A stretch of DNA of 64,000 bases from Sphingobacteriaceae bacterium (lineage in GTDB: Bacteria > Bacteroidota > Bacteroidia > B-17B0 > Aurantibacillaceae): NCBI GenBank assembly GCA_016709575.1, contig JADJMM010000012.1:28077-92076 (forward strand), in the 5' to 3' direction. A model generated the notes under the pieces. It ran no database searches. It was not told the origin of the DNA and was given only the letters and a program-made list of their open reading frames with translations. This document shows positions 9,593 to 51,384 of this stretch, one piece after another. The position numbers and the translations under genes were made by a program. Position 1 is the stretch's first letter; the number at the start of each line of letters is the position of its first letter.

Positions 9593-10589
9593 CTACTTCT
9601 GTTGAAACACATTCGTCTCCACCCATCCTTTGCCCCAGTCTTCGAGTTCTTCTTTGGTCCAAAGTTCAGGATAGAATACACGTTTTTGGAAACGTGGAGG
9701 TAAGTATTTTTGCCAATTAGTTCCACCGGTTGCAGCAATGTCTTCTGTATTTGCTTGTAAATAACGAACGGCAGATTTATAATGCACCAAAGGCCAATTG
9801 ATGTTTACATTCACGTCTAATTGTTTCAACGCATTAATTAAGTTTTCGTTTTTCTGATCAGCTTCTGGTAACGATTTATATTTTGCCCATAAATTAGTTG
9901 CTTTGTGTTCGTTTGCTAAAGCAATAAACTTAGCACCATATTTTTTCTCGAATTGTTTTAATGTTAATGTCTTTTACCCGTTGATAATTCAGTTGCACCT
10001 TGTTCCAATAAATATTTTGGAAACATCTCTTCAATACTTGCATTTTTCCAATATAATTTGCTCTTACATCTTTATCAACTAAATTAATAAAGTCAGTAGA
10101 ACAAATTTCAATCATACGATACTGAGCACTTTGAAATCCACTAGCCGGTAACAAAGCCATTCTGTAACGTAAAAATTGTTCTTTCTCCATTCCGTTAATC
10201 ATAATCTCGAAAGATTTTGTCAACGCTTCAAAATAACGGTTGATACGAACTACACGCTCAGCAAAAAACTTAATGTCTATTTTTTCTTTCCAACCTAATA
10301 ATTGTCCGTTTGGTAAAATATCCGGACCGTTATTTGAGATTTGATTGTATTCGTGTAAACATAATTTAAAATACAGCTCAGTAATTTGATGATACATGAT
10401 GAAAATAACTTCATCAGGAAAATCAGTTTTTGGGTTTTGTAAAGTCAATAAAGTATCAACTTGTGTATAATCCCAATAAGTTAAATAATTTGATAATAAT
10501 AAACCATCTAAATACCCGTCAAGGTCTTGACCCATCTGTGCATATTTCTCTTCGAGAAGTTTTATTTTTTGTTCAATTTTTGCGTCCAT
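9593..10589 (-). CDS. Tryptophan 2,3-dioxygenase family protein (two frameshifts in A runs)
   Basis: YWDYTQVDTLLTLQ, DEVIFIMYHQITELYFKL and LPASGFQSAQYRMIE resemble TDO. The C-terminal part runs through three frames (NASIEEMFPKYLLEQGATELSTGK, then KTLTLKQFEKKYG...WPLVHYKSAVRYL). The first ATG is at 10587-10589. Confidence 0.6.
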
Positions 10590-10594
10590 AGTTA

Positions 10595-11831
10595 TCAATT
10601 TATTTGGTGAAGATAAGTAAAGCTTAAATTCGTTGTGTGACTTCCGTCATTTTTATTTTTCAGTAAGGTATTATACAGATTTTCAACATCGTTTACCAGT
10701 CGTTTATACGAAAACTGTGCTAAAACTTGCTGTTGTCCGTTTTTTGCTTTGGCAGAAAGTGTTTCGAAATTATTGATGGCGTTTAAAATTTGTGAGATAA
10801 ATTCTTCAGGTTTGTCTTTGTCGCAAAGGAAACCACAATCTTTATGTAGAATGTCAGCCGTGCCTCCAACGTTGGTGCTCACAATAAATTTTCCGGCGGC
10901 TTGTGCTTCAATTAAACTTACAGGCGTACCTTCGTTTTTAGAGCTTAGGGCTACTAAATCTAATCCGGCTAAAGCCCAATCTACATTTTTAATCCAGGAT
11001 GTAAAACAAAACAGTTTTGAGGTGGAAGCTTCGTTAGTAAATGGTATTTTTTTGAAATTATATAATTCTCTAATTGCATTCTTGTTTCGCCATCACCAAT
11101 AATAAATGCACGTATTTTTTTGTTGGAATGTGTTGCTGCATTTTCAACAGCATCAATAAATAATTCGTGATTTTTAACAGGGGCAAGGCGACCAATAATG
11201 CCAATGGCTAATTCATCATCCTGTAAATTGTATTTAGCGCGGAATTCTTTTCGTTTTTGATCAATATTTTGTGTGAAGCGTTCTAAATCAAAACCTAAAT
11301 TAACTACGTGGGTTTGTTGCGGCGTACAAATTTTAAAAGTTTCGGTTAATTCTTTTTTCTGAATATCACTAATAGCAATAATAGCATCTGTTCGTTTTGC
11401 TAAATACCGTTCAATCCCTTTGAAAAATGCAGTTTTTAAAGCGCCAAAATAAGAATGAAAAACATGTCCATGAAAAGTGTGAACAATAACCGGTACTTTA
11501 CAATGAATAGCTGCTAATCGTCCAACTGCTCCTGCTTTTGAGCGTGCGTGTGCACGATATCCGGCTTGTATTCTTTTATAATTTGTTTAATCCGTTTGTA
11601 TGCAGCATAATCACTTTTAAACCCGATACTGCGTTGTAATTCTTCTATTAAAATTGGCTTTAAACCTAAGTTATCGGTAATGTGTAATGAACTTTCTTCG
11701 CCTTCTTCTTCTTTTCCGCCAATCAACATTGTTTCGTAGTCGGACGATAAATATTTTGTTAGGTAAGCCACATTATAAGTGATACCACCCAAATTAAAAC
11801 GATTAATTATACGTAGAACTTTTTTTGCCAT
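10595..11831 (-). CDS. Glycosyltransferase family 1 (GT4-type), frameshifted
   Basis: N-terminus MAKKVLRIINRFNLGGITYNV...PDIVHTHA. The middle section, by manual translation, reads KAGAVGRLAAIHCKVPVIVHTFHGH...IIGRLAPVKNHELFIDAV. The C-terminus reads SSKNEGTPVSLIEAQAAGKFIVSTNVGGTADIL, which contains the GT1 E-x7-E region. Confidence 0.75.
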
Positions 11832-13666
11832 TACTTAATAAACTCTCTAAAGTTCGTAAACCAATTCTGAAAAACAATCAGCGCCCAAACTTTTGCAGGA
11901 GCATCACCCGGATTATCGCTATATAACTTTTGTTTCAATTTGTGTATTGTGTCGTAATTAAAAATAGCTTCTTCTTTAATCCTTTTTTCATTCAGCCAAT
12001 TTTTTTCAATATCGGTTTTTAATTCTGTCTTTAACCATTTCCAAAGAGGCAATTCAAAACCTTTTTCTTCCTGCTAAAAATTTCTTTTGGCAATAAATCT
12101 TTAAAGCTCTCTTTTAAAATTAGTTTTTGTCCTTGATTCGATATTTTTTTATTCTCAGCTAAATTCATAGCGAATTCAACAACTCTGTAATCTAAAAAGG
12201 GATTCCGTATTTCTAAACCGTGTTGCATGCTCATCCGGTCGGCTTTCACTAACATATCATCCGCTAAAACAATTTTTAAGTCGGCGTAATTAACAGGATT
12301 AAAGTTCTTCTGAGTGAAAGCTTCTGAAAATAAATCATTAAACGAATGATTGCTTTTTGAAAGTAGTAAATCATTCACTTCTTTTTCATTGCTAATACAA
12401 GCCCAATTGATGTAGCGATCTTCAGCTTTTAAATTAACTGATTTAGAAAAACGTTTCAACTGACGAACTTTATTTGAGAAACTTTTATTTCGGGAATCAG
12501 GCAATAAACTTAACACCGGACTCATCATTGGCGACAAAGCTTTGGAAGAAAACTTACGGCTCAGTAATTCGGCTTTATGTTTATTGTAGCCCATGAACAA
12601 TTCATCAGCACCATCGCCGGATAGAGCAACTTTAACATGTTTTTTTGTGTATTTACTCAATACGTAAACATTAAAAGCAGAAGAATCAGCAAAGGGTTCA
12701 TCGATACTTTTTAAAAATGGATTTATGTTCTCGAGTAAGTCAGTATCTTTTAATTTGAAGCTGTGATGTGAGGAATTAATATGTTTCGCTACTAATTCAG
12801 CGTATTCTGTTTCGTCAAAAAAGGGTTCATCAGCAAAACCAATACTAAAGGTGTGAATGTCGTTATGATGTTTTTTTGCTAATGCTGAAATGATAGATGA
12901 ATCTAAGCCACCACTTAAAAAGCAACCAACGGGTACATCAGCGTTTAAACGTAATTTCACTGCATCAGAAAGTAGATCTTTAATTGATTCTTCCTTTTTG
13001 TGGTGTGGAATAGTGTACCAAGTTTTGATACTTACTTTTTTTTCTTTTACGGAAATATATTCACCCGGTAATAAACGAAATACATTTTTGAAAATGGTTT
13101 CTTTCCCGGTACTGTAATTTAATCTTAAATAAGTATGAAGTGCATTATGATTTAATTCTTGCGCGCCGGTTAACGATAATAAAGCTTTTAATTCAGAAGC
13201 AAAAGCAAATTTATCTTCATTCTGAAAATAATAAAGAGGTTTTACGCCGTATCTATCTCTAACAACACTTAACTCATCAGTTTTTGAATTATAGAAAGAA
13301 AATGCAAAAAAACCATTGAGTTTTATTGAGACAGTTTGTTTTTTCTTTGTCAAATAATTTAAATAACACTTCAACATCGCCTGTAGTTTTTAAATCGCCA
13401 ACTTCTTTTTGCAAATCTTTATAGTTAAATAACTCTCCATTAAAAACTAAAGCTTTTTCTTGTGCTGAGTCTAGGAATGGCTGATTGCTGTTTGGACTTA
13501 AATCCAAAATACTTAACCGAGCATGAAAAAGTGTGCAATTTTTGAATGCGTGATGGCTTTGAAAGTCAGGCCCACGGTGTTTAAGTGCCTCTGTAACCTT
13601 ATTGTTTTCGGTTGTTGGAGGTGCGCCTGAGTTTTTGAAAAAGTATATACCCGCAATGCCACACAT
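11831..13666 (-). CDS. Asparagine synthase (glutamine-hydrolysing), AsnB family, frameshifted twice
   Basis: MCGIAGIY is the Ntn amidotransferase start. SGGLDSS is the PP-loop in the middle ORF. Three ORFs are collinear (13289-13666, 12031-13377, 11831-12052). The stop overlaps the GT1 start as TAATG. Confidence 0.85.
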
Positions 13667-13722: not shown

Positions 13723-16700
13723 ATGTTTAAAAATCTGCTCCTAAACATATTGCTTTTTCTTACCTCGGGATTGCTTCTCTCGCAATCGCATCGTTTTAAG
13801 CATATTACCAGTGAGGACGGACTTTCTACCAACTTTGTAAGTTCCATTTTAAAGGATGACAAAGGTTTTATGTGGTTTGGAACACAAGATGGTTTGTGTC
13901 GTTATGATGGTTATCAGTTTAAAGTTTTTAAAAACACTAACGAGAATAAGAGCTCCTTATCATCTTCAGATATAACAAGAATTTATCAGCATAACGATGG
14001 TATGTTGTATATCGGTACACGTAATTCCGGACTAAACATTTATAATCCTTACAAAGATTCATTTGAAAGAATAAAATTAAATGTAGATAAAGACGGTTCT
14101 AATGAATTGAAGGTGAATTGTTTTTTAGATCTTGATAATACAACTGTTTTAATTGGTACTGATAAAGGCATTGTTTCGTTTAATTCAAAAACTAAAGAGA
14201 GTAAAGGTGTTGGATTAACCGGAAAGAAACTTGAAGTTGTTTTTTTATTCAAGTACCAATCTCAGATTATTGTGGCTACCGAGGGTTGGGGATTATGGCA
14301 GCTGACCAATAATAATCAACTAAAGAAAATAAATCTCTTACTCCCGCCGAGTTTAAAAATTGATCCCACAGAAATTGAAACCATTAATTCGATAACTGAA
14401 GTTGATGGTAAATTATTTTTGGCTAGTCATGGTGGCGGTGTTTTAAAAGTAAACCCGGGTAATTTCGCTGTTGAGAAAGTGTTTAGATTTGATGATGACA
14501 CTAATAATATCAATTTTATTGAGGATGTAAAAGTTATTGATAATAAACTATTGGCTATTACACGTGGCGGTGGAATTGTGTTGGATTTGAGAACAGAGAA
14601 GCATAATCTTTTTTCGAAGGAGGAAACCAATAAGCACAGCATAAATGATAATTATTTAACCACTATTTTTATTGATGAGCAAAAGAACATTTGGTTAGGT
14701 ACTTTTTCGGGTGGGGTTAACGTTTCGTTTTCGCAGACTCAAAAATTTCCTAATCTTCCAAAGGAAATTTCAGAACAATTTCAACGCACCTTTTCGGCTT
14801 ACGACGATGGAACTGATTTATGGATTGGCGGTGAGAAATCATTAAAAACACTTAACCCTGCGACTAATGTTGTTAAAGATTTAAGTAGTGTTATTGGTGA
14901 GAATTATATTTTATCGATGACAGGGGATAAGCAAGGAAATATTTGGATTGGAACCTGGGGCGTGGGCGTTTTTAAATACAATAAAACTACAGGAACAAAA
15001 GAAGAGTTTTTATCGAGTGAATTTGGCGGAACTGTTTTATCGTTATGCTTAGATAAAAATCAAAAATTATGGATTGGCTCTTATGGCGATGGTTTATTTG
15101 TGTTGGATACAAGAACCAATGAAGTAAAGAATTATAATGTTGCAGACGGAATAAGCAGTGATAAAATAACAGCTATTTATAACGACAAGAACGGAAATAT
15201 TTGGCTGGGAACTGATGGTGGTGGCGCTTGTTTAATTAAAGGAGGAAATATTGGCAAAAAGAATCTATTGTAAAGTATACACTATCAGATTCTGCAAATT
15301 CTATAGGTTCAAATATTGTTTATTCGGTTTTGGAGGATAATAATTCGAGAATGTGGTTTGCTACGAGTAACGGATTAAGTAAATATGATTTAGCTGCTAA
15401 AAAATTCACAAACTATACTGAGAAGGATGGTTTATCAAACAATTTCGTGTCATCAGTTTTATCTGATAGTTTAAATAATATTTGGATGAGTACGAATAAA
15501 GGAATTTCTAAATTCAATCCAAATATTGAAAACATAAGTGGTTCAGCTTTTAAAAACTACGATCAAAAGGATGGGTTGTTAAACAATGAACATAGTCAGG
15601 GTGCATACGGAAAATTAAGGAATGGTAGTTTATTATTTGGTGGTGTAATGGGTGTTAACATTTTTAATCCCAGTGCAATTAAAGAGAACAGCCATTTCCC
15701 ACCAGCATATATTGTTAGTTATAAGCGCGCCGGTAAAAACATAGAAACAGATACAGCTATTACTTATAAAAAATATTTAAACCTCAGTTGGAGAAAACTT
15801 TTCCAGTTTGAGTTAGCGGCTCTTGATTATAATTCGCCTTCTGAAAATAAATATATGTACAAATTGGAAGGGTATGATAATGATTGGTCATCTCCAACTA
15901 ACGTGCGTTACGTTTCTTATACAGAATTACCTGGTGGCGATTACGTGTTTAAAGTTAAGGCAGCCAATGATGATGGGATTTGGAATGAAACTCCAAATTA
16001 CATTTATATTACTGTAGTACCACCATTTTGGAAAACAGTTTGGTTTTACATTATAGTTTCTGTTTTAGGTTTCGGTGGCATTATTGTGTTTATTCAAATG
16101 CGCACACGCGCTGTTAAAACGTGAAAACAAAATATTAGAAAATAAAGTAGCAGAGCGTACAAAGGAATTAGCTGAGAAGAACACAGATATTACGAGTAGT
16201 ATTGAATACGCAAAACGTATTCAGGAAGTAATTCTCCCTGCAAAAGATCAAATTTTCAGTAAGTTTAATAACGCCTTCATTTTATACAAACCAAAGGATA
16301 TTGTAAGTGGCGATTTTTATTGGTACGGAAACAAAAACGGATTTAAAATATTTGCTGTAGTAGATTGTACCGGTCATGGTGTGCCTGGCGCCTTTATGAG
16401 TATGATAGGTCATAATATTTTTGAATCAGGTGGTAATTGAAAATGGTGTGACTGAACCCTGGTAAAATATTAAATGGTCTGCATAAAGGTGTTCAAACAG
16501 CTTTAAAGCAAGGGCAAAATCAGGTGAATACCAATGATGGAATGGACGTCTCTATGATATCTGTTAATGAGGCGACGGGGGAAGTGCTTTGGGCAGGAGC
16601 TTTCAGGCCGGTTGTGATTGTAAGAGCCGATGGAACTCTCGATAAGGTAGACGGTAATAAATCTTCGGTTGGCGGGGCTCAAACCAGTGTTGACAGGACA

Positions 16701-16946
16701 TTTACAACCCATACACTTGATTTAAAGAAACAAGATACAATTTACTTATATTCAGATGGATACGCTGACCAATTTGGTGGCGAGAAGGGTAAGAAATACA
16801 TGGTAAAACGCTTTAATGATCTTTTATGTGCCATCCATGTTTATAGCTTAAATGAGCAGCAAAATGAGTTGGAGAAGGCCTTTGAAGACTGGCGCGGAAA
16901 CCATGAGCAGATTGATGATGTTTTGGTTGTAGGGATTCGTTTTTAA
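13723..16946 (+). CDS. Periplasmic beta-propeller sensor (Reg_prop/Y_Y_Y) fused through a TM helix to a PP2C/SpoIIE-type phosphatase; SiaA-like; at least four frameshifts
   Basis: Reg_prop repeats (DGLSTNFVSSILKDDKGFMWFGTQDGLCRYDG and others). Y_Y_Y region (YMYKLEGYDNDWSSPTNVRYVSYTELPGGDYVFKVKA). TM helix WFYIIVSVLGFGGIIVFI. PP2C motifs (SGDFYWY, VVDCTGHGVPGAFMSM, DGMDVSMI, YLYSDGYADQFGG, DDVLVVGIRF). The pieces lie in collinear ORFs. Confidence 0.8.
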
Positions 16947-16972
16947 ATAAAATAGTATTATATTTGCTTATC

Positions 16973-17821
16973 ATGAAAAAAATTAAAATTTTATCGATTC
17001 TGTTAATCGCTTCATCATTTGTTTTTGTTTATTCGTGTAAGAAAAACACTAAAGAAGTTGATACAGAAACTCAATCGGTTGTTGATAATGCAATTTGCGA
17101 ACAGGAGTTTATGCAAATTCAACCAACCACAAACAACCTAGCTATTAAAACTAAAGGAACAAGTGCGCAGCGTTTAGCTGGTGTTACAGGTGGATGTGAT
17201 TCGTTAACTTATTTAAGTGGAGATACTACCGCTGCAGGATTTACTAATACAAACCCTCCAACTTTCGAATACAATTACGGTATTTGTTCTTTAGCTAATA
17301 CAGATGGAGTTATTCGTACAGGTAAATTATGGATTCGTTTCTTAGGTCGTCCTAAAACTGCAGGTTCAAAAACAATAATTAAACTATTAAATTATAAAGT
17401 AAATGGTTCTATCACTTATTCTTGTGATAGTATTGTTGTAACAAGTGGTTCAAATGCTACAGCTGCAGTTAGAGATTTTACAGTTCAGATTATTGGTGGT
17501 GTTTGTACAGGAAATGGTTGGACAGTTAAATATAGCTCAACGAAATATATTTCAATAAATACTAATAGCACTACTGCATTAAGTGATGATGTTGTAACTG
17601 TATCAGGAACTGCAAACGGAACTAACCGTGATGGCAGAGATTTTGATGTTGTAATAACAGGCATTACAAAACCTGCAAATTGTAAACATATTACAACAGG
17701 TAAAGTTGATGTTACACCAAAAGATTTCTCTACAAGAACTGTTGATTTTGGATCAGGTACTTGTGATGATGACGCAACTTTTACAGTAAACGGACAAACA
17801 ATAGCATTTAAACTGAAATAA
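16973..17821 (+). CDS. Cys-rich lipoprotein of unknown function
   Basis: MKKIKILSILLIASSFVFVYSC is a lipobox-like signal with Cys. The mature part is Thr/Gly/Asn-rich with about ten Cys. It lies 26 nt after the phosphatase stop and 7 nt before the next gene. Confidence 0.6.
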   Translation: MKKIKILSILLIASSFVFVYSCKKNTKEVDTETQSVVDNAICEQEFMQIQPTTNNLAIKTKGTSAQRLAGVTGGCDSLTYLSGDTTAAGFTNTNPPTFEYNYGICSLANTDGVIRTGKLWIRFLGRPKTAGSKTIIKLLNYKVNGSITYSCDSIVVTSGSNATAAVRDFTVQIIGGVCTGNGWTVKYSSTKYISINTNSTTALSDDVVTVSGTANGTNRDGRDFDVVITGITKPANCKHITTGKVDVTPKDFSTRTVDFGSGTCDDDATFTVNGQTIAFKLK

Positions 17822-17828
17822 ATTTCTG

Positions 17829-18404
17829 ATGCCGGTAGTTTCTTCAAGTATAATGGTTGACGCGTTCAGTATCTACGATAAGATGGAGAGGAATAATATT
17901 CTTCTTTCTTTTAAAGGAGATATTACTTCTGAACTGTTAACGTCTATTCTCCAGATAATGGAAAATAAGATGGATAACATGCAGGAAGAACCAAAGATGA
18001 AGAAGAAAGTTTACAATGTATTAGTAGAATGTTTACAAAACTTATATCACCACATGGATGATGTTGCCGATGCAACAGGTGATATTAACCGCTCAGCGAT
18101 TTTTATGATTGGTAAAGCTAATAACGCTTACACAATCACTACAGGAAACTATATTTTAAGCGAAAACGTAAACGGACTTAAAGGTCGTTTAGATGAAGTT
18201 AACGCACTTACTAAAGAAGAATTAAAAGAATATTACAAAAAGGTACTTAATAACGGCGAAATGTCGCTAAAAGGCGGAGGTGGTTTAGGGATGATAGATA
18301 TAGCCCGAAAAACTGGCGAAAAATTAGAGTATAATTTTTTGGAAATTGACAATAAAGTTTCTTTCTTTACACTAAATATTAAGATTAATCAATTACCATT
18401 ATAA
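17829..18404 (+). CDS. SiaB-like (GHKL-fold, anti-sigma-kinase-like) protein
   Basis: 191 aa. The N-terminus ILLSFKGDITSELLTSILQIMENKM and the C-terminal G-rich lid KGGGGLGMIDIARKTGEKLEY are typical of small HATPase-type switch kinases. An alternative start lies at 17853. The family call is from memory. Confidence 0.55.
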   Translation: MPVVSSSIMVDAFSIYDKMERNNILLSFKGDITSELLTSILQIMENKMDNMQEEPKMKKKVYNVLVECLQNLYHHMDDVADATGDINRSAIFMIGKANNAYTITTGNYILSENVNGLKGRLDEVNALTKEELKEYYKKVLNNGEMSLKGGGGLGMIDIARKTGEKLEYNFLEIDNKVSFFTLNIKINQLPL

Positions 18405-18445
18405 TAAGTAACACAACAAGTTCAAGAACATAAAATAAACAAACT

Positions 18446-18826
18446 ATGGAAAAATACTCAATTGACGGCACTCCAAAAACTCCAACAATCAGTTTCGATT
18501 TAGGTAGCGGTTTATTAGAAATTAAAGGACGTTCAATCCCTGAAAACTCTATCGAGTTTTACAAACCATTAGTTGATGCTTTAGATAAGTATGCAGGATC
18601 TCCTAAATCTGCAACTAACGTTAATATTCAACTTGAATATTTTAATACTAGTTCATCTAAATGTATTTTGGATGTATTTAAGAAATTAGAAAACATCAAT
18701 AAAAACGGAAGCGCAGTTATTATCAACTGGCATTACGAAGAAGATGATGAAGATATGTTAGAGGCTGGTGAAGATTACCAAGCTATCATTAACGTGCCAT
18801 TTAAAATGGTTCAGGTTAGCGAATAA
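18446..18826 (+). CDS. DUF1987 / SiaC-like regulatory phosphoprotein
   Basis: 126 aa with TPKTPTISFDLGSGLLEIKGRSIPENSIEFYKPLVDAL, LEYFNTSSSKCILDVFKKLE and INWHYEEDDEDMLEAGEDY, which is the DUF1987 signature as I recall it. Confidence 0.7.
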   Translation: MEKYSIDGTPKTPTISFDLGSGLLEIKGRSIPENSIEFYKPLVDALDKYAGSPKSATNVNIQLEYFNTSSSKCILDVFKKLENINKNGSAVIINWHYEEDDEDMLEAGEDYQAIINVPFKMVQVSE

Positions 18827-18909
18827 TATCCTAACCTTATAATATTGCTGAAAGTGTTACATTTTCGGGGTTTTTTATTAAACACAGTCTCGAATCGGGC
18901 TTTTTTCTG

Positions 18910-18917
18910 TAAATTTG
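18910..18917 (+). promoter_or_regulatory. Candidate -7 box TAAATTTG upstream of fbaB
   Basis: Exact TAnnTTTG match 22 nt before the ATG at 18940. Confidence 0.35.
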
Positions 18918-18939: not shown

Positions 18940-19995
18940 ATGCCGGTAAATGTTAAGGAATTATTAGGCGCACAGGCCGATACTTTATTGAATCATACTT
19001 GTAAAACAATTTCAAAAGATCAAATCCACTTACCTGGTGCTGATTTTGTTGAACGAATTTTTCAACAAACTAATCGCAACCCGCAAGTGTTACGCAGTTT
19101 GCAACAACTTTACGGTACTGGCCGTTTAGCTAATACAGGTTACATGAGCATCCTACCAGTTGATCAAGGTATCGAACACAGTGCAGGTGCATCATTCGCT
19201 CCAAACCCAATTTATTTCGATAGCGAAAACATAGTTAAATTAGCTATTGAAGGCGGTTGTAACGCTGTTGCTTCTACTTATGGTGTTCTTGGTTCAGTAG
19301 CGCGTAAATACGCTCACAAAATTCCTTTTATCGTAAAAATTAATCATAACGAATTTTTATCGTACCCAAATAAATTTGACCAAATTATGTTTGGTTCTGT
19401 TGAAGACGCTTGGAACATGGGCGCAGTTGCAGTTGGTGCTACCATTTATTTTGGTTCTCCTGAATCAGGCCGACAAATTGTTGAGGTTGCTCAAGCATTT
19501 GACCGTGCACACGAATTAGGAATGGCAACTGTTTTATGGTGCTATACCCGTAACAACGCATTTAAAAAAGACGGTGTTGATTATCACACTGCAGTGGATT
19601 TATCTTCACAAGCCAATCATTTAGGTGTAACTATTCAAGCCGATATCATTAAACAAAAAATGTCAGACAAGAACGGTGGTTACACTGCTTTAAATCATGG
19701 TAAGACTCACGCAAAAGTTTATTCTGAATTAACTTCAGAAAATCCAATTGACTTATGTCGTTACCAAGTTGCTAATTGTTACATGGGCCGTATGGGTTTA
19801 ATTAATAGTGGTGGCGAAAGTAAAGGCGCAACAGATTTAGCTGAAGCAGTTACAACAGCCGTAATTAATAAGCGTGGTGGTGGACAAGGATTAATTTCAG
19901 GACGTAAAGCGTTTCAGAAACCATTAAAAGAAGGAGTTTCATTACTGAATTCTATTCAGGATGTTTATTTAGATAAATCAATTACCATTGCATAA
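18940..19995 (+). CDS. fbaB: Class I fructose-bisphosphate aldolase (FbaB/DhnA type)
   Basis: The 351-aa product is collinear with E. coli FbaB as I recall it ([47 protein letters not shown], ends DKSITIA). Confidence 0.9.
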
Positions 19996-20933: not shown

Positions 20934-23900
20934 TTAATCTATAATTAATTTCTTCGTACAAGTCGAATTCTCTTTAGTAATCTTCACTAAATAAACTCCC
21001 GCCTTTAAGGTTGAGGTATCAAAAGTTAAAGTGTCTTTTGTTTTTGTAAATGGTAATTCAAAAGTTCTTCCTAACATATCCGTAACAGTTACAATTGTGT
21101 TCTCAGTATCTTGCATGCTGATTTGAAATTTATCATGTGCAGGGTTAGGGTAAAGGCGAACACTGTTAGTTAATTCATTTTCTTTTAGGCCAGTGTACAT
21201 ATATTGTTTGGTAGTGAAGCTGTATTCAAATCTTCTTCCAAAATCGGCATTAAAGGTTTTAATAACTGTTCCTTGTGCGTTCTTTAATCTTACATATCCG
21301 GCACCTTGTGCTGTACTGGCCCACCATTGGAGTCCGTCTTCACCGGTATCTTCAAATATTAATTTATAACAACCACTTAATATGTAATTGTCATTATAAA
21401 CAGTATTAGGTCCGGTTAAAACGCTCGCACCGGGAACTGCATTTCCATTGTCATCAAATAATTTATGAATTAGTGTTTTGTATGTTACCATCAAATATAT
21501 TGTTCGTTTTTACTTCAATGGTTAATGAGTCAGTTAAAATATCAGGTAATGTAAAGCCTGAAGAGTATTTGTTGTTATAAGAATAGTTATCCGTAGTATT
21601 ATTTGCTTTCTTTAACTCTACATTAAATTTATTATTACTTGGTAATACTCCGTTAGTCCATAAATTACCAATTGGCAAAGAAATAGAAACTGTATCCATA
21701 AAAGCTAAGTTTCCTGTCCATGTATAAGTTTCTTTTGCTGAATTGTTATTCATCCAATAATCAATATTCAAACTTGTTATAGATGTTGAGCCTGTGTTTT
21801 GTACAGTAATAATTGGTTTAGCACACATCGGGTTCTCGCGAGAATAAAACTTTGTTACTCGGTTTATTTACATCAACAATACTTGCATCCAGACTAAAGT
21901 TAGGAGAACCATAACTTATTAATTGATGCGCTGCTATATATCGGTAATCACCACCACTAACCGGAGGATTAGAACAATTATAATCTAATGTTACTGTTGA
22001 GCCTGGAGTAATGTATGGCGTAACGTTATATTCTTTTAATAATGAATATTCACCCGGACACCAACCTTGCCTGTCGTAAACCCAAGTGCCACCTTGTGCA
22101 GTTATAGGATTAGTTGCACAACGGCGTGTAATTTGCCAGCTGAATTCATTAGCACCTCCGTTAATATTGAAGTAATGATCAATTAAACCACCATTCTGAT
22201 CAAATTCTCCTTCAGCACCGTGACCTGTTATTGTTGAACGCATTTTAAAGGCATTGGCTAAACTATTTGTCGCCACACTTTGTATTGGAAATCTTGTATC
22301 GTTAGTAATACTTCCAATAGATGAACCGCCCCAACGTGCGCCCCCTTGCCATAATTGATTACATTCTAAAACTGTGCGTGGTGGTGTACCAACAATAAAT
22401 AAAAAGTCGATATCCATTTGTTCTTGCCACTCACCGCCAAGCGTCATTAAGAAACGTTTCTTACCTTTTAATAATGGAGCGTAATCACTCACATCAAAAT
22501 ACCAGGTCTTACCGTTCATTCCAAAATCTAAACCAATACCATAAGGTGTTACAAACGACATTAACTCAATATAAAAAGGATGACGTCGGTTGTAATTTAA
22601 ATTTGTGATAGTGATTGTGTTCTGAGCAACAGCAGCAATGGTTCCTGTTAATATTCCTGTATCACCATTGTAAACATTTAAAGGTGATGTATTATATAAA
22701 TTATTGGATGTAGAAACTAAAGTGACAACATCATTTGCCATTGGTGTAACAGTTGCGTTAGAAGTGATAGAGAATTGCTGAATAGTATTAGGACTTCTTC
22801 CTATTGAATCTTTAACAACAACAGTATTGGTTGTAATAGAATAAACGCCACGTAAAAACGTAACATTTGGTTTTACGTTTGTTTCGTTAAACATTCGGGT
22901 GAGTTTATTACCTCTGTCGAAACTCCAGAGAATACTTGTTCCGGTTGAGGTAACACTTTTTTGTATCATTCACAATTAATCCTGTGCCTTCATCCATTTT
23001 GTAATAAGCAACTAAATCAGAATAGAATGGGTGAGAAGGAGTAACAGGAACATTCATTATCGCTTTTACATCTGCTAAAACAAATTCTCTGTTCCAAATA
23101 GTTAATTCATTTATTTTTCCTTTATAATTATTATTGAGTGAAGCGTCCTTTCCTAAAATCATGTTCATGATAGAAATTGGCTTTATTTTACCACCTGCAA
23201 TCAACCACAAAGTACCATTTAAATAAACTCTCATCCAACCTGAACTTACATTTTTTGTAAAGGTCCAGTGATTCCATTGTCCACCTTGATTCGCTGCAGT
23301 AGAAACTTTGTTAGCACGATCAAATCCTCCTGCGCTAAAACCACAATCAAAATAAACGCTGTTATCACTCCATGGTAAATGAATATTTAAAGCACGGTCG
23401 TTTGGATTTGTAGCATAAGCATACATTACAGAAGTATTTGCCGGCATTAAGTTTTTATTTCCATAAGCCCAAAACGAAATGGTTAATGAATTATTTATTG
23501 CGCTTAAAAAAGTAGAATTAATATTAATGTGACCATTCGATTCAAAATCTACGGCGTAATTGTTGTTTGTGTATAAAGCGTTCACCGAAGTTGTACTTAC
23601 ACCATTAAAAATGATTGGGGTGCTTGGACTAGAATTAGTAAATGAGCAATCAATAAGTATGTTATCAGTTCCGTTCCAAGTAAAAGGTGTATGAAATTGA
23701 ATTCTGTTATTGCCATTTACAAAACTATAATTTGCATTATACACATTTGTGAATCCTGTCAGAACTACTGTTGATGCATTAAGAGCAGTTAATGTTGTGT
23801 TTTGAATACTTAGATTAAAGAAATTGGTATTGCCACCGGCATTCGCAACATCTAATAATAAACCATCAATATTTCCAGCTGTAAATCCCGCACTGGTTAA

Positions 23901-24419
23901 TTCAGCAGCGGTATATAACAATTGTGAGCGTCCCGATTTTTCGTTGGCTTTTAAATAATTAGGAACAGAGGAAGTGCCTGTTCCAACTGTGTATTGTGTT
24001 TCTGAAGTAATTGAATTTAATGTAACTGTAGTTTGCGCGTAATTATAATAATCGTAAGGCTGAAGAGTAGTGTAAGGAAAAACAGTTCCTGTGAAATTAG
24101 AGATGATATGACTTGGAGCTGTTAAGTTCTCAATTTCCATTCTGCTTGAATCGGCGATGTAGGTGTTACAAGAATAATCCCACTCACCACAACCTAAATT
24201 ACGTTGCGATGAAGTAGATACTAATCCGTTTTTACAACGCATGTTATAGCGCATGATAATTTTTTCATACGTTAAACTATTACTTGGAAACTGAATGGCA
24301 GTATCACGGGTGGTGCTTCCGTATTTAAATGTTTTTACAACAATTGTATCGCCGGTAACTTGAGAAATGGCACTAAAACTTAAAAGAGCTAACAAACAAA
24401 CGAGTATTTTTTTCATCAC
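20934..24419 (-). CDS. Large T9SS cargo protein of about 1160 aa, PNGase F-related with a LamG-like domain; three frameshifts
   Basis: Four collinear ORFs. The first has a signal peptide (MMKKILVCLLALLSFSAISQ) and GCGEWDYSCNTY. A LamG-like section reads LTISFWAYGNK...WNHWTF...MRVYLNG. GGTWVYDRQGWCPGE resembles the PNGase F C-terminal domain (from memory). The tail is VRLYPNPAHDKFQI...GVYLVKI...KLIID. Confidence 0.6.
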
Positions 24420-24599
24420 TTATAATTAATTTAATTCAAATATAACTAAATCGATTTAACATTGGGAGACTTTTTATCAAGAATGGCCCTAAAACCAGCC
24501 TATTTTAGCTCCAAAATTGTAATGCAACCAACGATTTGTCTTAAACAGTATGAAAACTTATCTGTAACCTTTTCTTTTTTGAGATATTATATATGCAAG

Positions 24600-25445
24600 A
24601 TGAAACACCTGGCACTAATAATTGTTTGTTTAAGTTTTTATGCAAATGCGCAGGAAAATATTTCGGGTGTTTTCAATAATGAGGCACCCAATCCATGCGG
24701 TTCGGAGAATAATAACTTAATTATAAATAAGCATCCTGTTCCACAAGCCTACAATCGCGAAGCAGACTTAATGTGGGAAAAACGTGTATGGCGTGAATTG
24801 GATTTGCGTGAGAAAATAAATCACACTTTATATTTCCCAATCGAATATCAACCCTGTAAAATTTCTTTGTTCCAAATAATGACTAAACACATTTTGACCG
24901 GAGATATTATTGCTTTTGCTGATGAGAGTTTTTATAGTCCTTTATCATTAACAGAAGTAAGAAAGAAACTCGTGCAAAAGGAAGAACAAGAACAAGTTAT
25001 TTACGATTCATTAGGTAATGAAATTCCGGTAATGGTAACAGGTTATGATTCTGTTTCTCTTTTTTCTAAAGTTATAAAAGTTCGGATGGTTGAGGATTGG
25101 TATATGAACTCCGGTCGCTCAGGTTTAGAAGTGCGTATTGTTGGAATGGCATTTTACGAATACGTAGAAGAAAAAGAAGCGTTCAAAGAATTGTTTTGGG
25201 TGTATTTCCCCGCTGTAAAACCATTCCTGGCAAAGTATAGATCATTTAATCAGAAAAACAATATAGACCGCAGTAGTTTTGATGATGTATTTACAAGGCG
25301 ACAATTTGGAAGTTATATTGTAAAAGAAAGTAATGTGTACGACCGTTATGTGTTTGATTATGCTAAAGGTGTTGATGCTTTATTGGAATCAGATAGAATT
25401 AAGAACGATATTTTTAAATGGGAACATGATTTGTGGCATTATTAG
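24600..25445 (+). CDS. GldN/PorN-like protein (stand-alone)
   Basis: MKHLALIIVCLSFYANAQ is a signal peptide at the internal ATG (codon 47 of ORF 24462). READLMWEKRVWRELDLREKINHTLYFP and VRMVEDWYMNSGRSGLEVRIVGMA match GldN family motifs as I recall them. Confidence 0.5.
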   Translation: MKHLALIIVCLSFYANAQENISGVFNNEAPNPCGSENNNLIINKHPVPQAYNREADLMWEKRVWRELDLREKINHTLYFPIEYQPCKISLFQIMTKHILTGDIIAFADESFYSPLSLTEVRKKLVQKEEQEQVIYDSLGNEIPVMVTGYDSVSLFSKVIKVRMVEDWYMNSGRSGLEVRIVGMAFYEYVEEKEAFKELFWVYFPAVKPFLAKYRSFNQKNNIDRSSFDDVFTRRQFGSYIVKESNVYDRYVFDYAKGVDALLESDRIKNDIFKWEHDLWHY

Positions 25446-44278: not shown

Positions 44279-46391
44279 ATGAGCGACTTATTATATACAA
44301 GAAATATCGGGATTGCAGCCCACATCGATGCAGGTAAAACTACTTGTACCGAGCGTATTCTTTACTACACAGGTGTAAATCACAAAATTGGTGAGGTTCA
44401 CGATGGTGCTGCAACAATGGATTGGATGGTTCAGGAACAAGAGCGTGGTATCACAATTACCTCTGCAGCTACTACATGTTTCTGGAATTACCGTAACAAT
44501 AAATACAAAGTAAACATTATCGATACTCCGGGTCACGTTGACTTTACAGTTGAGGTGAACCGTTCATTACGTATTCTTGATGGTTTAGTATTCTTATTTT
44601 CTGCAGTTGACGGTGTTGAGCCTCAATCAGAAACTAACTGGCGTTTAGCTGATAATTATAACGTAACCCGTATCGGTTTCGTTAATAAGATGGACCGTCA
44701 AGGTGCTGACTTCTTAAACGTAGTTAAACAAACAAGAGAAATTTTAGGCGGTAATGCTGTTCTATTACAGTTTCCAATTGGTGCTGAAGAAACTTTTATC
44801 GGTGTTGTTGATTTAATTAATAACCGTGGTATGTTTGGAATGAAGCAGATAAAGGTATGACATTTACTGAAGTGCCTATTCCTGATGATATGAAGGATGA
44901 TGTTACTGAGTGGAGAGAGAAATTATTTGAATCAGTTGCTGAATTTGATGATAAAATCATGGAGAAGTTCTTTGACGCTCCTGAAACTATCACTGAACGC
45001 GAAGTTCTAGATGCTTTACGTAAAGCTTGTGTTGCGAATAAAATCGTTCCTATGGTTTGCGGATCTGCATTCAAAAACAAAGGAGTTCAAACTATGTTAG
45101 ACTTGGTAATGGAATTAATGCCATCACCATTAGATAAAAAAGAAACTATCGGTATCAACCCTGATACTGAAGAACAAGTTACCCGTCGTCCTGATCCAAA
45201 AGAACCATTTACAGCTTTAGCATTTAAAATCGCAACCGATCCTTTCGTAGGTCGTTTGTGTTTCTTCCGTGCTTATAGCGGACGTTTAGATGCAGGTTCT
45301 TATGTATTAAATACACGTAGCGGTAATAAAGAGCGTATTTCACGTATTTTCCAAATGCATGCTAACAAGCAAAACCGGTTGAGTTTATCGAAGCTGGTGA
45401 TATTGGAGCTGCAGTAGGATTTAAAGATATTAAAACAGGAGATACACTTTGTGACGAGAAACATCCAATTGTTCTTGAAGCAATGAATTTCCCTGAGCCA
45501 GTTATCGGAATCGCTATTGAGCCTAAAACTCAAGCTGACTTAGATAAATTAGGCGTAGCATTAAATAAATTAGCTGAAGAAGATCCTACTTTCCGCGTTA
45601 AAACGGATGAAGATTCTGGTCAAACTATCGTTTCCGGAATGGGCGAGCTTCACTTAGAAATTATCGTTGACCGTTTACGTCGCGAGTTTAAAGTAGAGGT
45701 TAACCAAGGTGCACCTCAGGTGTCTTATAAAGAGGCAGTTAAGGGTTCAGTAGATCATCGTGAAGTTTACAAAAAACAAACAGGTGGTCGCGGTAAATTC
45801 GCTGATATGAAAGTGACTTTAGGTCCGGTTGATGCTGATTATGACGTATCAAAAGGTGCTTTACAGTTCGTTAACGAGATTACAGGTGGTAACATTCCTC
45901 GTGAATTTATCCCTGCAGTTGAAAAAGGATTTAAAGCTTCATTAAACAATGGTGTTTTAGCAGGATATCCTTTAGTTGGATTAAAAGTTGTATTAACTGA
46001 CGGTTCTTACCATGCGGTTGACTCGGACGCATTATCTTTTGAGATTTGTGCACGTAACGCATTCCGTGAGGCATTAGGAAAATGTGATCCTGTGTTATTA
46101 GAGCCAATCATGAAAATAGAAGTTATCACTCCGGAACAAAACATGGGTGATGTTGTAGGTGACTTGAACCGTCGTCGCGGACAAATTGAAGGTATGGATA
46201 GCAAAGGAACTGCACAAGTTATCAAAGCTAAAGTACCTCTATCTGAGATGTTTGGATATGTTACTCAATTAAGAACTTTAACGTCAGGCCGTGCATCATC
46301 TACTATGGAATTCTCTCATTATAACGAGACTCCGGCAGGTATCGCAGCTGATGTAATTTCAAAAGCAAAAGGTAAAGCAGAAAAAGTTTAA
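44279..46391 (+). CDS. fusA: Elongation factor G (two frameshifts, near 44831 and at CC 45375-45376)
   Basis: [22 protein letters not shown] and NKMDR are in ORF 1. ORFs 2 and 3 are collinear ([11 protein letters not shown]...; [16 protein letters not shown]...GELHLEI...). Confidence 0.95.
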
Positions 46392-49978: not shown

Positions 49979-50707
49979 ATGGGACAAAAAGTTAATCCAA
50001 TAGGTTTTCGTTTAGGAATCGTTAAAGGCTGGGACTCTAACTGGTACGGTGGAAGAGACTATTCTGAGAAATTGGTTGAAGATGATAAAATCAGAACCTA
50101 TTTAAAAGCGCGTTTAGCAAAAGGAAGTATTTCTAAAATTGTTATTGAGCGTACTTTAAAATTAGTTACAGTAACTATCAATACAGCTCGTCCGGGTATC
50201 ATTATCGGAAAAGGCGGTAAAGAAGTTGATAAATTGAAAGAAGAGTTAAAGAAATTAACTAAGAAAGAAGTTCAAATCAACATATTCGAAATTAAACGTC
50301 CGGAAACTGATGCACGTATTGTTGCTGACAGTATTGCCCGTCAAATTGAAGGTCGTATTTCATTCCGTCGTGCAGCTAAAATGAGTATGGCTTCAACCAT
50401 GCGCATGGGTGCAGAAGGAATTAAGATAAAAGTATCAGGTCGTTTAGGTGGTGCTGAAATGGCACGTACTGAAGGCTACAAAGAGGGGCGTACACCGTTA
50501 CATACGCTTCGCGCTGATATTGATTACGCAGTAGCAGAAGCTCACACATCTTATGGCCGTATTGGTGTTAAGGTTTGGATTTGCAAAGGCGAAATTTTTG
50601 GTAAACGTGATTTATCACCAAACATTGGCTTAGCAAAAGAAAAGAAGGGTCCTGCAACACCAAAATTTGGTGGCGGTAAGAAAAAAGGTAAAAGAGAAGA
50701 TAAATAA
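49979..50707 (+). CDS. rpsC: 30S ribosomal protein S3
   Basis: [13 protein letters not shown]...KH domain...[12 protein letters not shown]. Confidence 0.96.
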
Positions 50708-50739
50708 TTGAGGTTTTAAAGAATTAAAGATTTTATAAG

Positions 50740-51169
50740 ATGTTACAACCGAAAAGAACGAAGTTCAGGAAATCGCAAAAAATGAAAATGAAAGGCAACG
50801 CCAAACGTGGCGATCAATTAGCCTTTGGTTTATTTGGTATTAAAGCACAAGAAGGTACTTGGGTTACAGCCCGTCAAATTGAAGCGGCCCGTATTGCCAT
50901 CACTCGTTTCATGAAACGTGAAGGTCAAGTTTGGATCCGCGTATTCCCCTGATAAACCAATTACTCGTAAACCGGCTGAGGTTCGTATGGGTAAAGGTAA
51001 AGGTGCTCCTGAATATTGGGTAGCTCCTGTAAAACCAGGACGTATTATTTTTGAAGCAGAAGGTGTTTCTATCGAAGTAGCAAAAGAAGCATTACGTCTT
51101 GCAGCACAAAAATTACCAATTGTTACAAAATTTGTAGTTAGAAAAGATTACAGAGCTAACGAAGCTTAA
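50740..51169 (+). CDS. rplP: 50S ribosomal protein L16 (frameshift in the C run 50946-50949)
   Basis: [11 protein letters not shown]...[11 protein letters not shown]...VWIRVFP, then [19 protein letters not shown] in the next frame. Confidence 0.94.
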
Positions 51170-51180
51170 TAAATTTTAAA

Positions 51181-51384
51181 ATGAAAAATAAAGACATCAT
51201 AGCATTATCAGATCAGGAATTGATCGATAAAGTAAAAGAAGAAAAAGCAGCTTTAGGTAAGTTAAAGTTGAATCATAATGTTTCTCCAATCGAGAATCCA
51301 ATTAAGATTCGCGACAACCGCAAAGTGGTTGCCCGTTTACAAACTGAAGCTACAAAACGTAAAAACGCAAAAGCAGCAAAATAA
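51181..51384 (+). CDS. rpmC: 50S ribosomal protein L29
   Basis: 67 aa, LSDQELIDKVKEEKAALGKLKLNH, and operon position. Confidence 0.9.
   Translation: MKNKDIIALSDQELIDKVKEEKAALGKLKLNHNVSPIENPIKIRDNRKVVARLQTEATKRKNAKAAK

Follow-up and report, generated by a model that had tools for sequence, protein, structure and literature searches.

A probable SiaABC-type partner-switch operon with a hybrid two-component-type sensor and no diguanylate cyclase gene at its locus in a Sphingobacteriaceae bacterium

A four-gene operon encodes a probable SiaABC-type partner switch

A 64,000-nucleotide stretch of the Sphingobacteriaceae bacterium assembly GCA_016709575.1 (contig JADJMM010000012.1, positions 28,077 to 92,076 of the forward strand; hereafter the window) contains four co-directional genes on the plus strand at 13723-18826, as read from the window's list of open reading frames (ORFs). 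These genes encode a sensor phosphatase (gene 1), a lipoprotein (gene 2), a SiaB-like kinase (gene 3) and a SiaC-like phosphoprotein (gene 4). We propose, with a probability of about 0.7, that they form a functional operon for a Ser/Thr partner switch of the SiaABC type, in which the sensory input has been replaced and the output is encoded elsewhere. The core of this module is known and its parts are already named by automated annotation, while the sensor fusion and the accessory lipoprotein are new and the canonical output, a diguanylate cyclase, is missing at the locus. The spacers of 26, 7 and 41 nt that an earlier note on this DNA had described between the four genes are borne out by the ORF coordinates, which are collected together with the other features in Table 1.

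Genes 3 and 4 belong to the SiaB and SiaC families

Gene 3 matches PF19788 (DUF6272) at 143 bits and passes NF038262, the NCBIfam model for SiaB-family kinases, at 166 bits against a cut-off of 85, and its product aligns over the full length to SiaB (6kko_A, E 1.2e-14). Gene 4 matches PF09345 (SiaC) at 147 bits against a cut-off of 24.5, and its alignment to P. aeruginosa SiaC is ungapped (6kko_C/6k4f, E 7e-19). Both genes are thereby hit by family models of the kind with which the earlier note had proposed to check them. Each also scores below the corresponding equivalog model, with 94 bits against 225 for gene 3 (SiaB, NF038264) and 93 bits against 150 for gene 4 (SiaC, NF038265). A hydropathy scan found no hydrophobic segments in either protein.

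Residues that matter for catalysis and phosphorylation are retained. Glu67 and Asn71 of gene 3, which correspond to the catalytic Glu61 and the N-box Asn of SiaB, are invariant in 73 orthologues, as are three glycines of the GGGG box, with the fourth glycine present in 72 of the 73. The equivalent in gene 4 of the site that SiaB phosphorylates, Thr68, sits in the sequence LEYFNTSSS and is invariant in 79 species together with Tyr65, Asn67 and Ser69.

Among 4924 representatives of the SiaC family, the SiaC domain is fused elsewhere to SiaB (DUF6272), to HEAT repeats (with two SiaC copies), to TIR and to SLT transglycosylase domains (proteins P0252, P0329, P0285, P0249, P0259 and P0276). The existence of natural SiaB-SiaC fusions counts for the partner-switch reading. 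We considered the HEAT, TIR and SLT partners as a clue to the target and set them aside, as they are varied and none is relevant to this lineage. Their variety fits the suggestion that DUF1987 proteins modulate varied partners (PMC8457831).

Gene 1 joins a hybrid two-component-type sensor to a SiaA-like phosphatase

The gene 1 protein was analyzed after its frames had been stitched, as described below. Pfam models identified Reg_prop (121 bits), Y_Y_Y (59.5 bits) and SpoIIE (61.7 bits) in this protein, and the hydropathy scan found only two hydrophobic segments, one at the N terminus and one transmembrane helix, which places the propeller in the periplasm and the PP2C domain in the cytoplasm. 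The first ~770 residues match the sensor domains 4a2l (E 2e-88), 3v9f (E 9e-66) and 3va6 (E 2e-38) in the Protein Data Bank (PDB), which, like 4a2m, were deposited as periplasmic sensor domains of two-component sensor histidine kinase/response regulators. The protein behind 4a2l and 4a2m is the Bacteroides hybrid two-component system (HTCS) BT4663, and 3v9f and 3va6 are Bacteroides HTCS proteins as well. The match to 4a2l upholds the claim of the earlier note that the input domain is of the type used by Bacteroidota hybrid two-component systems.

The C-terminal ~280 residues match the PP2C structure of SiaA (6k4e, E 2.5e-35), which is the sole solved phosphatase matched by the catalytic domain at E<=1e-5. 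The motifs GDFY, DC(T)GHG, MD, DGYAD and DD align with the SiaA active site, whose residues are named in PMC7647112, and are invariant in 24 orthologues. Against the SiaA equivalog NF038263, gene 1 scores 187 bits with a cut-off of 700, and it misses the cut-off because only profile positions 372-657 are matched, with positions 1-371 unmatched. No HisKA, HATPase_c, REC or HTH_AraC domain was found in the stitched protein, in which SpoIIE is the only cytoplasmic Pfam match. Pfam, hydropathy and the 6k4e match together agree with the architecture that had been read from the sequence, namely a Reg_prop/Y_Y_Y propeller, one transmembrane helix and a PP2C/SpoIIE domain. This architecture is common: among the best 120 of 4448 matches to gene 1, nearly all carry Reg_prop, Y_Y_Y and SpoIIE, and such proteins are annotated generically as 'SpoIIE family protein phosphatase' or 'ligand-binding sensor domain-containing protein/serine phosphatase RsbU'.

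Gene 2 encodes a cysteine-rich lipoprotein

Gene 2 has a signal peptide with lipobox Cys22, no other hydrophobic segment in the hydropathy scan and six further conserved cysteines, in agreement with its earlier description as a Cys-rich lipoprotein. Pfam and NCBIfam searches gave no match. We collected 302 homologues, and all source names that give a taxon are those of Bacteroidota metagenome-assembled genomes (MAGs). The AlphaFold (AF2) model, with a predicted local distance difference test score (pLDDT) of 76, consists of one long helix followed by beta strands and is mostly beta, and a Foldseek comparison of the model with the PDB found no fold match at E<=0.001. LptA (E 0.05) and RPA1785 and LolB (E 0.3-1.7) were rejected as the gene 2 fold, since these hits are too weak, with target TM scores <=0.45. 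Gene 2 is a candidate co-sensor. Separately, we observed that gene 2 can be linked to one or the other half of the module, accompanying the propeller phosphatase in L090 (10001-14746) and the kinase/SiaC pair in L005 (4826-10381).

The SiaB/SiaC-like pair is the invariant unit among relatives

Relatives were identified by a pattern scan based on a 13-sequence SiaC alignment, with one genome per GTDB species, which yielded at least 593 confirmed SiaC-like relatives. We mapped the loci of the best 80 of these (65-98% SiaC identity), whose record titles are almost all those of Bacteroidota MAGs, along with 8 loci obtained through protein look-ups, by using six-frame ORFs; arrangement counts take only loci with enough upstream sequence. 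A SiaB-like gene lies directly upstream of the SiaC-like gene in 80 of 82 evaluable loci, the order lipoprotein, kinase, SiaC-like protein is found in 41 of 79, and all four genes occur in order in 27 of 61, 26 of those with the propeller. Where gene 2 is present and enough upstream sequence is available, gene 1 accompanies it in 26 of 32 loci, on the same strand and with short gaps. The four-gene form is concentrated among closer relatives with a SiaC score >220 (24/33) and is found in 3/28 of the distant ones. A 5.6-Mb Sphingobacteriaceae contig carries the same four-gene order followed by fbaB and accD, with 49% identity in gene 1. Co-conservation of the four genes, which the earlier note had put forward as a test of the module, is thus seen in closer relatives and is rare in distant ones, where mostly the SiaB/SiaC-like pair stands alone. 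Taken together, these counts identify the SiaB/SiaC-like pair as the invariant unit, which genes 1 and 2 join mainly in closer relatives.

We also ran the neighborhood survey that had been suggested for finding a recurrent fifth gene. When the neighbor ORFs of the related loci were clustered and the recurrent clusters annotated, no fifth gene recurred inside the operon, and only lineage-specific neighbors appeared. The gene directly downstream of the SiaC-like gene is fbaB in 25 loci, a convergent ABC transporter gene of ~1025 aa in 15, a TPR/OmpA gene in 4, an RlmL-like methyltransferase gene in 1 and an unrelated gene in 37. Upstream of the two-gene form lie an RlmL-like methyltransferase, a methyltransferase with a ZIP transporter, or a PfkB kinase. 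As candidates for a recurrent fifth gene, we rejected fbaB/accD, the ABC transporter, the RlmL-like methyltransferase and the methyltransferase with ZIP transporter, all of which are lineage-specific. The recurrent neighbors other than fbaB/accD have no homologue in the window.

The proposed mechanism and its relation to known systems

In the mechanism that we propose, gene 1 would be a single-pass membrane phosphatase whose propeller and Y_Y_Y region, a fold that binds oligosaccharides in Bacteroides HTCS, senses an extracytoplasmic ligand, probably with the assistance of the periplasmic lipoprotein from gene 2. The signal would pass through the transmembrane helix and the signaling helix to the SiaA-like PP2C domain and set its activity. 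This domain would dephosphorylate Thr68 of the SiaC-like protein, and the SiaB-like kinase would rephosphorylate the same residue. The unphosphorylated SiaC-like protein would then bind and modulate a target through its invariant phospho-loop/alpha2/alpha3 face, and that target is predicted to be neither a locus-encoded diguanylate cyclase nor the product of any gene in the operon.

The closest known system is SiaABCD of P. aeruginosa (PA0172-PA0169), which likewise combines a SiaA-type PP2C phosphatase with metal-binding Asp motifs, a SiaB-family kinase and a DUF1987/SiaC phosphoprotein with Thr68, encoded on one strand in the order phosphatase, kinase, phosphoprotein. In contrast to SiaABCD, the input here is a periplasmic Reg_prop/Y_Y_Y propeller of ~750 residues rather than the N-terminal sensor region of SiaA itself, a lipoprotein gene lies between those for the phosphatase and the kinase, no siaD (GGDEF) gene is present at the locus, the equivalog scores stay below their cut-offs (187/700, 94/225 and 93/150), and the SiaC-like protein departs from SiaC at 10 of the 14 residues that contact SiaD. 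With the Bacteroides HTCS represented by 4a2l/4a2m, 3v9f and 3va6, gene 1 has in common a homologous periplasmic sensor followed by Y_Y_Y and a single transmembrane helix. Unlike HTCS, gene 1 continues into a cytoplasmic PP2C domain without HisKA, HATPase_c, REC or HTH_AraC, no SusC/SusD locus is found among the annotated neighbors, and the signal would enter Ser/Thr partner switching rather than a His-Asp phosphorelay.

The module also resembles the RsbU/RsbP-RsbV-RsbW and SpoIIE-SpoIIAA-SpoIIAB systems, in which a sensor PP2C phosphatase and a small GHKL-type kinase act on a small STAS-like phosphoprotein that switches partners when unphosphorylated. It differs from them in that the operon has no sigma factor gene, the kinase is of the SiaB (DUF6272) family, and gene 4 matches Pfam SiaC rather than Pfam STAS; for the STAS-like fold of SiaC, the literature is our only source (PMC7647112). 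Further partner switches with an enzyme as output are HsbR-HsbA-HsbD of P. aeruginosa and BgrSTUWV-BgrR of Sinorhizobium meliloti, which, in the form in which PMC8457831 cites them, have diguanylate cyclases as outputs, whereas none was found at the locus here.

SiaABC has so far been understood only as the controller of one Pseudomonas diguanylate cyclase, and when we searched the literature for Bacteroidetes work on partner switching, SiaC, DUF1987 or DUF6272, only the Pseudomonas studies turned up. Hundreds of Bacteroidota species retain this kinase/phosphoprotein core at loci that encode no cyclase, and the identity of its target would show what the DUF1987/SiaC switch does outside the control of cyclic di-GMP (c-di-GMP). 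The sensor fusion points to an HTCS-type periplasmic domain that can drive a PP2C phosphatase, which would be a third signaling output of this sensor family in Bacteroidota, besides HTCS.

The locus lacks a diguanylate cyclase gene and the SiaC-like contact face differs from that of Pseudomonas SiaC

We searched for diguanylate cyclases by running phmmer on six-frame translations, with two domains validated by Pfam GGDEF (171 and 175 bits) as queries; the search covered 64 kb of this genome and +/-10 kb around the loci of relatives, or ~1.3 Mb from 90 loci. No GGDEF domain was found at E<=10 in the 64-kb window or in 88 loci, and none at E<=1e-3 in L089 and L090. The claim that no GGDEF gene lies on either side of the operon therefore stands locally, at the locus and in the related neighborhoods.

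We then compared the face with which SiaC contacts its cyclase. PMC8457831 lists which P. aeruginosa SiaC residues touch the SiaD stalk, and the 14 positions map one-to-one onto gene 4 in the ungapped alignment. Four are identical (Tyr65, Asn67, Thr68 and Ser69), two are conservatively changed (M75L and E110D), and eight are changed non-conservatively (Q10P, D29R, Y31I, I71S, D79K, R103D, L107A and D114I), with charge reversals at D29R, D79K and R103D. Across 79 Bacteroidota species, 13 of the 14 contact positions are invariant, compared with 49 of 126 positions overall (hypergeometric P 1.5e-5). Constraint within the protein is thus strongest at this face, but its chemistry differs from that of the P. 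aeruginosa face, which fits a different, conserved partner.

These results bear on the possibility that the output is still c-di-GMP, such that the unphosphorylated SiaC-like protein activates a SiaD-like cyclase encoded at a distance, as happens in Pseudomonas. The four identical residues are the phospho-loop residues that reach in between the helices of the SiaD stalk, GGDEF proteins occur in some environmental Bacteroidota, and the GGDEF search was confined to the neighborhoods given above. However, none of those neighborhoods contained a GGDEF domain, and the replacements at the ten changed contact positions, three of them charge reversals, are invariant across Bacteroidota. Furthermore, a 2005 census of the four Bacteroidetes genomes available at the time recorded no diguanylate cyclases (PMC1183210). 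We consider a distal cyclase as the output unlikely.

A classical anti-sigma switch would have the SiaB-like GHKL kinase sequester a sigma factor that is freed by the unphosphorylated SiaC-like protein, as in RsbW/RsbV and SpoIIAB/SpoIIAA. In structure, the nearest proteins to SiaC are anti-sigma-factor antagonists (PMC7647112). Like RsbW, the kinases of the SiaB family are small and of the GHKL type, and at least 8 loci have a gene for an extracytoplasmic function (ECF) sigma factor three to four genes further downstream (cluster c20; L089). We know of no sigma-binding role for SiaB, however, and no sigma factor gene lies in the operon or its neighborhood in the window. Where the ECF sigma gene does occur, it sits after fbaB and accD, past the terminator, and neither the window nor the majority of loci contains it, so we hold this alternative to be quite improbable.

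Returning to a SiaABC-type switch with an unlinked, non-cyclase target, we also entertain, tentatively and at less than even odds, a broader reading in which the SiaB/SiaC-like pair would be a phylum-wide phospho-switch of the Bacteroidota that is served by interchangeable PP2C sensors, in this operon an HTCS-type propeller paired with its own lipoprotein, and acts on a conserved, non-c-di-GMP effector through the invariant acidic alpha2/alpha3 face. This possibility draws on the at least 593 species-representative matches, in which SiaC is 65-98% identical across orders. If it is correct, extracytoplasmic (possibly glycan) sensing in Bacteroidota would also be wired to Ser/Thr partner switching, apart from the known HTCS and ECF sigma/anti-sigma routes.

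Gene 4 ends the transcription unit and fbaB is separate

The gene downstream of gene 4 is fbaB (18940-19995), which encodes a 351-aa aldolase of the DeoC/LacD family. The earlier note had placed it behind a box of its own, and we find both a conserved terminator in between and a TAnnTTTG box ahead of fbaB. A hairpin and T-run follow gene 4 in 25/25 related loci with fbaB downstream, with stems that vary by lineage (CCCCGAAA/TTTCGGGG, CCCTGCC/GGCGGGG and CCTCCTGCA/TGCAGGGGG), and a TAnnTTTG box comes next in 20/25 of these loci. On this good comparative evidence, gene 4 would be the end of the operon, with fbaB and accD belonging to a separate unit. The hairpin in the window (18848-18868) lacks 3 nt (ACC) of the 5' arm when compared with close relatives (L001:10403), which shortens the stem; given the poor quality of the assembly, this gap may be another assembly error. 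In the window as a whole, TAnnTTTG is not enriched (91 found, 103 expected), and a scan for sigma-70 promoters gave no more sites than chance would (22 found, 27 expected), so the promoter calls draw only on position and on conservation in relatives.

The boundary bears on the possibility that the output is metabolic, with the class I aldolase (fbaB), the acetyl-CoA carboxylase subunit (accD) or both under the control of the SiaC-like protein. These two genes follow gene 4 on the same strand in the 25 loci, including L026 and L042, which have no genes 1-2, and the 5.6-Mb Sphingobacteriaceae contig. The terminator intervenes in every one of them and the separate promoter box in most; moreover, all 25 loci come from one clade (SiaC identity >= ~76%), and other lineages have the ABC transporter, the TPR/OmpA protein or an unrelated neighbor in this place. 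Control of fbaB or accD is accordingly, in our estimate, highly unlikely.

Points that weigh against a single four-gene module

Several observations count against our interpretation of the four genes as one functional switch. L090 has gene 1 and a gene 2 homologue (28% identity, E 2e-35) with no genes 3-4, in L005, L006 and L011 genes 2-3-4 come after a PKD/SprB gene for type IX secretion system (T9SS) cargo and gene 1 is missing, and genes 3-4 stand alone in most distant relatives. None of genes 1, 3 and 4 reaches the NCBIfam equivalog cut-off of its counterpart among SiaA, SiaB and SiaC, so they are to be read as family members and not as strict orthologues. The constraint on the SiaC-like face may be explained by binding of the kinase and the phosphatase alone, and hence is no proof of a third partner. 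A glycan ligand is an analogy only, because no polysaccharide-utilization genes occur among the annotated neighbors: neither SusC/SusD nor a glycoside hydrolase was found among the annotated neighbor clusters, several clusters and all singleton neighbors having been left unannotated. Accordingly, we use 'glycan sensor' as a statement on the domain family. We found no biochemical evidence in the literature for any Bacteroidota member. Finally, gene 1 as given carries four frameshifts, and should these be genuine, this strain has a non-functional phosphatase.

The separate occurrence of the sub-modules, which extends to most Bacteroidales and Flavobacteriales loci, would also be expected if genes 1-2 and genes 3-4 were independent systems that happen to be adjacent, with other substrates for the propeller phosphatase and another PP2C serving the SiaC-like protein; in several genomes, PP2C sensors with TPR, GAF, PAS, HAMP or YfiR-like inputs do adjoin the pair. 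Yet the sole solved match of the gene 1 catalytic domain at the threshold used is SiaA, with which it has the DC(x)GHG motif in common, and 26/32 gene 2-bearing loci keep gene 1 directly upstream. Several phosphatases acting on one switch protein is also normal in partner switching, as RsbU and RsbP both act on RsbV. Independence of the two halves is, on balance, very improbable.

The gene 1 frameshifts are very probably assembly errors

The earlier note had described gene 1 as a single gene for a protein of about 1070 aa. The length holds, at 1074 aa for the stitched protein, and the single ORF does not, as gene 1 is split in the window into four ORFs in alternating frames (13723-15273, 15330-16124, 16075-16440 and 16524-16946). 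Three-frame translation located four frame changes, which were defined by alignment to the intact orthologue of L001, a relative at ~90% nucleotide identity. Relative to L001, the window has a one-base deletion in an A-run at ~15261 (A5 instead of A6), one extra T at ~16114, T5 for T4 at ~16418 and CCC for CC at ~16457, such that most of the indels fall in short base runs. The PP2C region holds two of the frameshifts, with a third at its 5' edge. The stitched protein has the same length as those of the intact genes in L001, L002 and L004.

Similar breaks are found elsewhere in the window. One-nucleotide homopolymer indels of this kind break asnB, the GT4 glycosyltransferase gene, a Trp-dioxygenase gene and the 1157-aa T9SS cargo gene, and the essential genes fusA (in three pieces), rplP and the 3' end of secY are broken alike; the rate of such indels is ~1 per kb, and frameshifted regions were noted at 44279-46391, ~50700-51200, ~57100, 9930-13666 and 20934-24419. 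When gene 1 was frame-corrected, the ratio of nonsynonymous to synonymous substitution rates (dN/dS) was 0.048 relative to L001 and L002, the two closest relatives, with which genes 2, 3, 4 and fbaB gave 0.013-0.08, values that denote purifying selection. Since fusA, rplP and secY carry breaks of the same kind, the gene is intact in relatives and dN/dS is ~0.05, the breaks in gene 1 are very probably sequencing or assembly errors. We conclude from these comparisons that the assembly of the window is rich in indels and that the organism has a functional gene 1; any pseudogene call in the window is therefore unreliable. That the module is decaying and gene 1 a true pseudogene, as its four frameshifts taken at face value would imply, has almost no credence in light of the like damage to essential genes, the short base runs in which most indels lie, a dN/dS in the range of the intact neighbors and the intact gene in close relatives.

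Features of the operon and its surroundings

Table 1. Positions of the operon genes, the parts of gene 1 and the elements downstream of gene 4, numbered from the first nucleotide of the window
Feature	Position	Strand	Description
Gene 1	13723..16946	+	Sensor phosphatase; 1074 aa once frames are corrected; four ORFs in the assembly as given
Gene 1, N-terminal hydrophobic segment	13723..13782	+	Signal peptide or signal anchor; aa 1-20; hydropathy scan
Gene 1, periplasmic sensor	13789..16031	+	Reg_prop propeller and Y_Y_Y (Y_Y_Y ~15825-15989); Pfam and PDB sequence matches
Gene 1, transmembrane helix	16032..16106	+	Single helix; aa 771-795; hydropathy scan; sole internal hydrophobic segment
Gene 1, signaling helix and PP2C domain	16111..16946	+	Cytoplasmic signaling helix and SiaA-like PP2C/SpoIIE domain; 6k4e match, motifs, NF038263
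Gene 2	16973..17821	+	Exported lipoprotein, 282 aa; ATG start; longest ORF starts at TTG 16964; intact
Gene 3	17829..18404	+	SiaB-family (GHKL-like) Ser/Thr protein kinase, 191 aa; cytoplasmic; intact ORF
Gene 4	18446..18826	+	SiaC-family (DUF1987, STAS-like) phosphoprotein, 126 aa; intact ORF
Terminator-like element	18848..18876	+	GC hairpin and T-run; 22 nt past the gene 4 stop; closes the operon
TAAATTTG	18910..18917	+	Bacteroidota -7-type box; 23 nt ahead of the fbaB start; next transcription unit, outside the module

Additional PP2C sensors lie near the SiaB/SiaC-like pair in several related loci (L015:1195-4877, L028:3-3716, L044:12063-13850, L070:2-4904 and L086:3-4857), with inputs that comprise TPR, four GAF domains, HAMP, PAS, or a YfiR/HmsC-like periplasmic domain with PAS. 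L070 and L086 also contain a second SiaB-like gene. The presence of these extra sensors beside the pair suggests that several inputs may converge on one switch.

The ABC transporter of ~1025 aa is found near the pair in 26 loci from Bacteroidales, Flavobacteriales, Salinivirgaceae and Vicingaceae, usually in convergent orientation. It consists of ABC_tran, ABC2_membrane and a 250-residue N-terminal domain without a family, and its gene is followed by those for a 142-aa secreted protein and a 299-aa lipoprotein. In loci that include L051-L053, L060, L063, L069, L071-L075, L079 and L082-L085, it lies ~50-600 nt downstream on the opposite strand. This proximity may reflect either ancestral synteny or a functional link. 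A 116-aa STAS-domain protein is encoded a few genes upstream of the pair in L062 (2059-2409), with equivalents in L063 and L069, near rnz and guaA, which suggests that partner switches of both kinds may operate in these Bacteroidales genomes.

Rfam and tRNA scans of the window gave no matches. The neighbors of the operon in the window are asnB, the GT4 glycosyltransferase gene, fbaB, accD and a T9SS cargo gene. As the earlier note had it, asnB is upstream and divergent; it lies at 12031-13666 on the minus strand and is frameshifted. The T9SS cargo gene is part of a region at 20934-25445, the annotation of which was transferred from L001 orthologues: here, a frameshifted gene for a cargo protein of ~1157 aa with N-glycanase_C and Por_Secre_tail domains adjoins a GldN-family gene (24462-25445).

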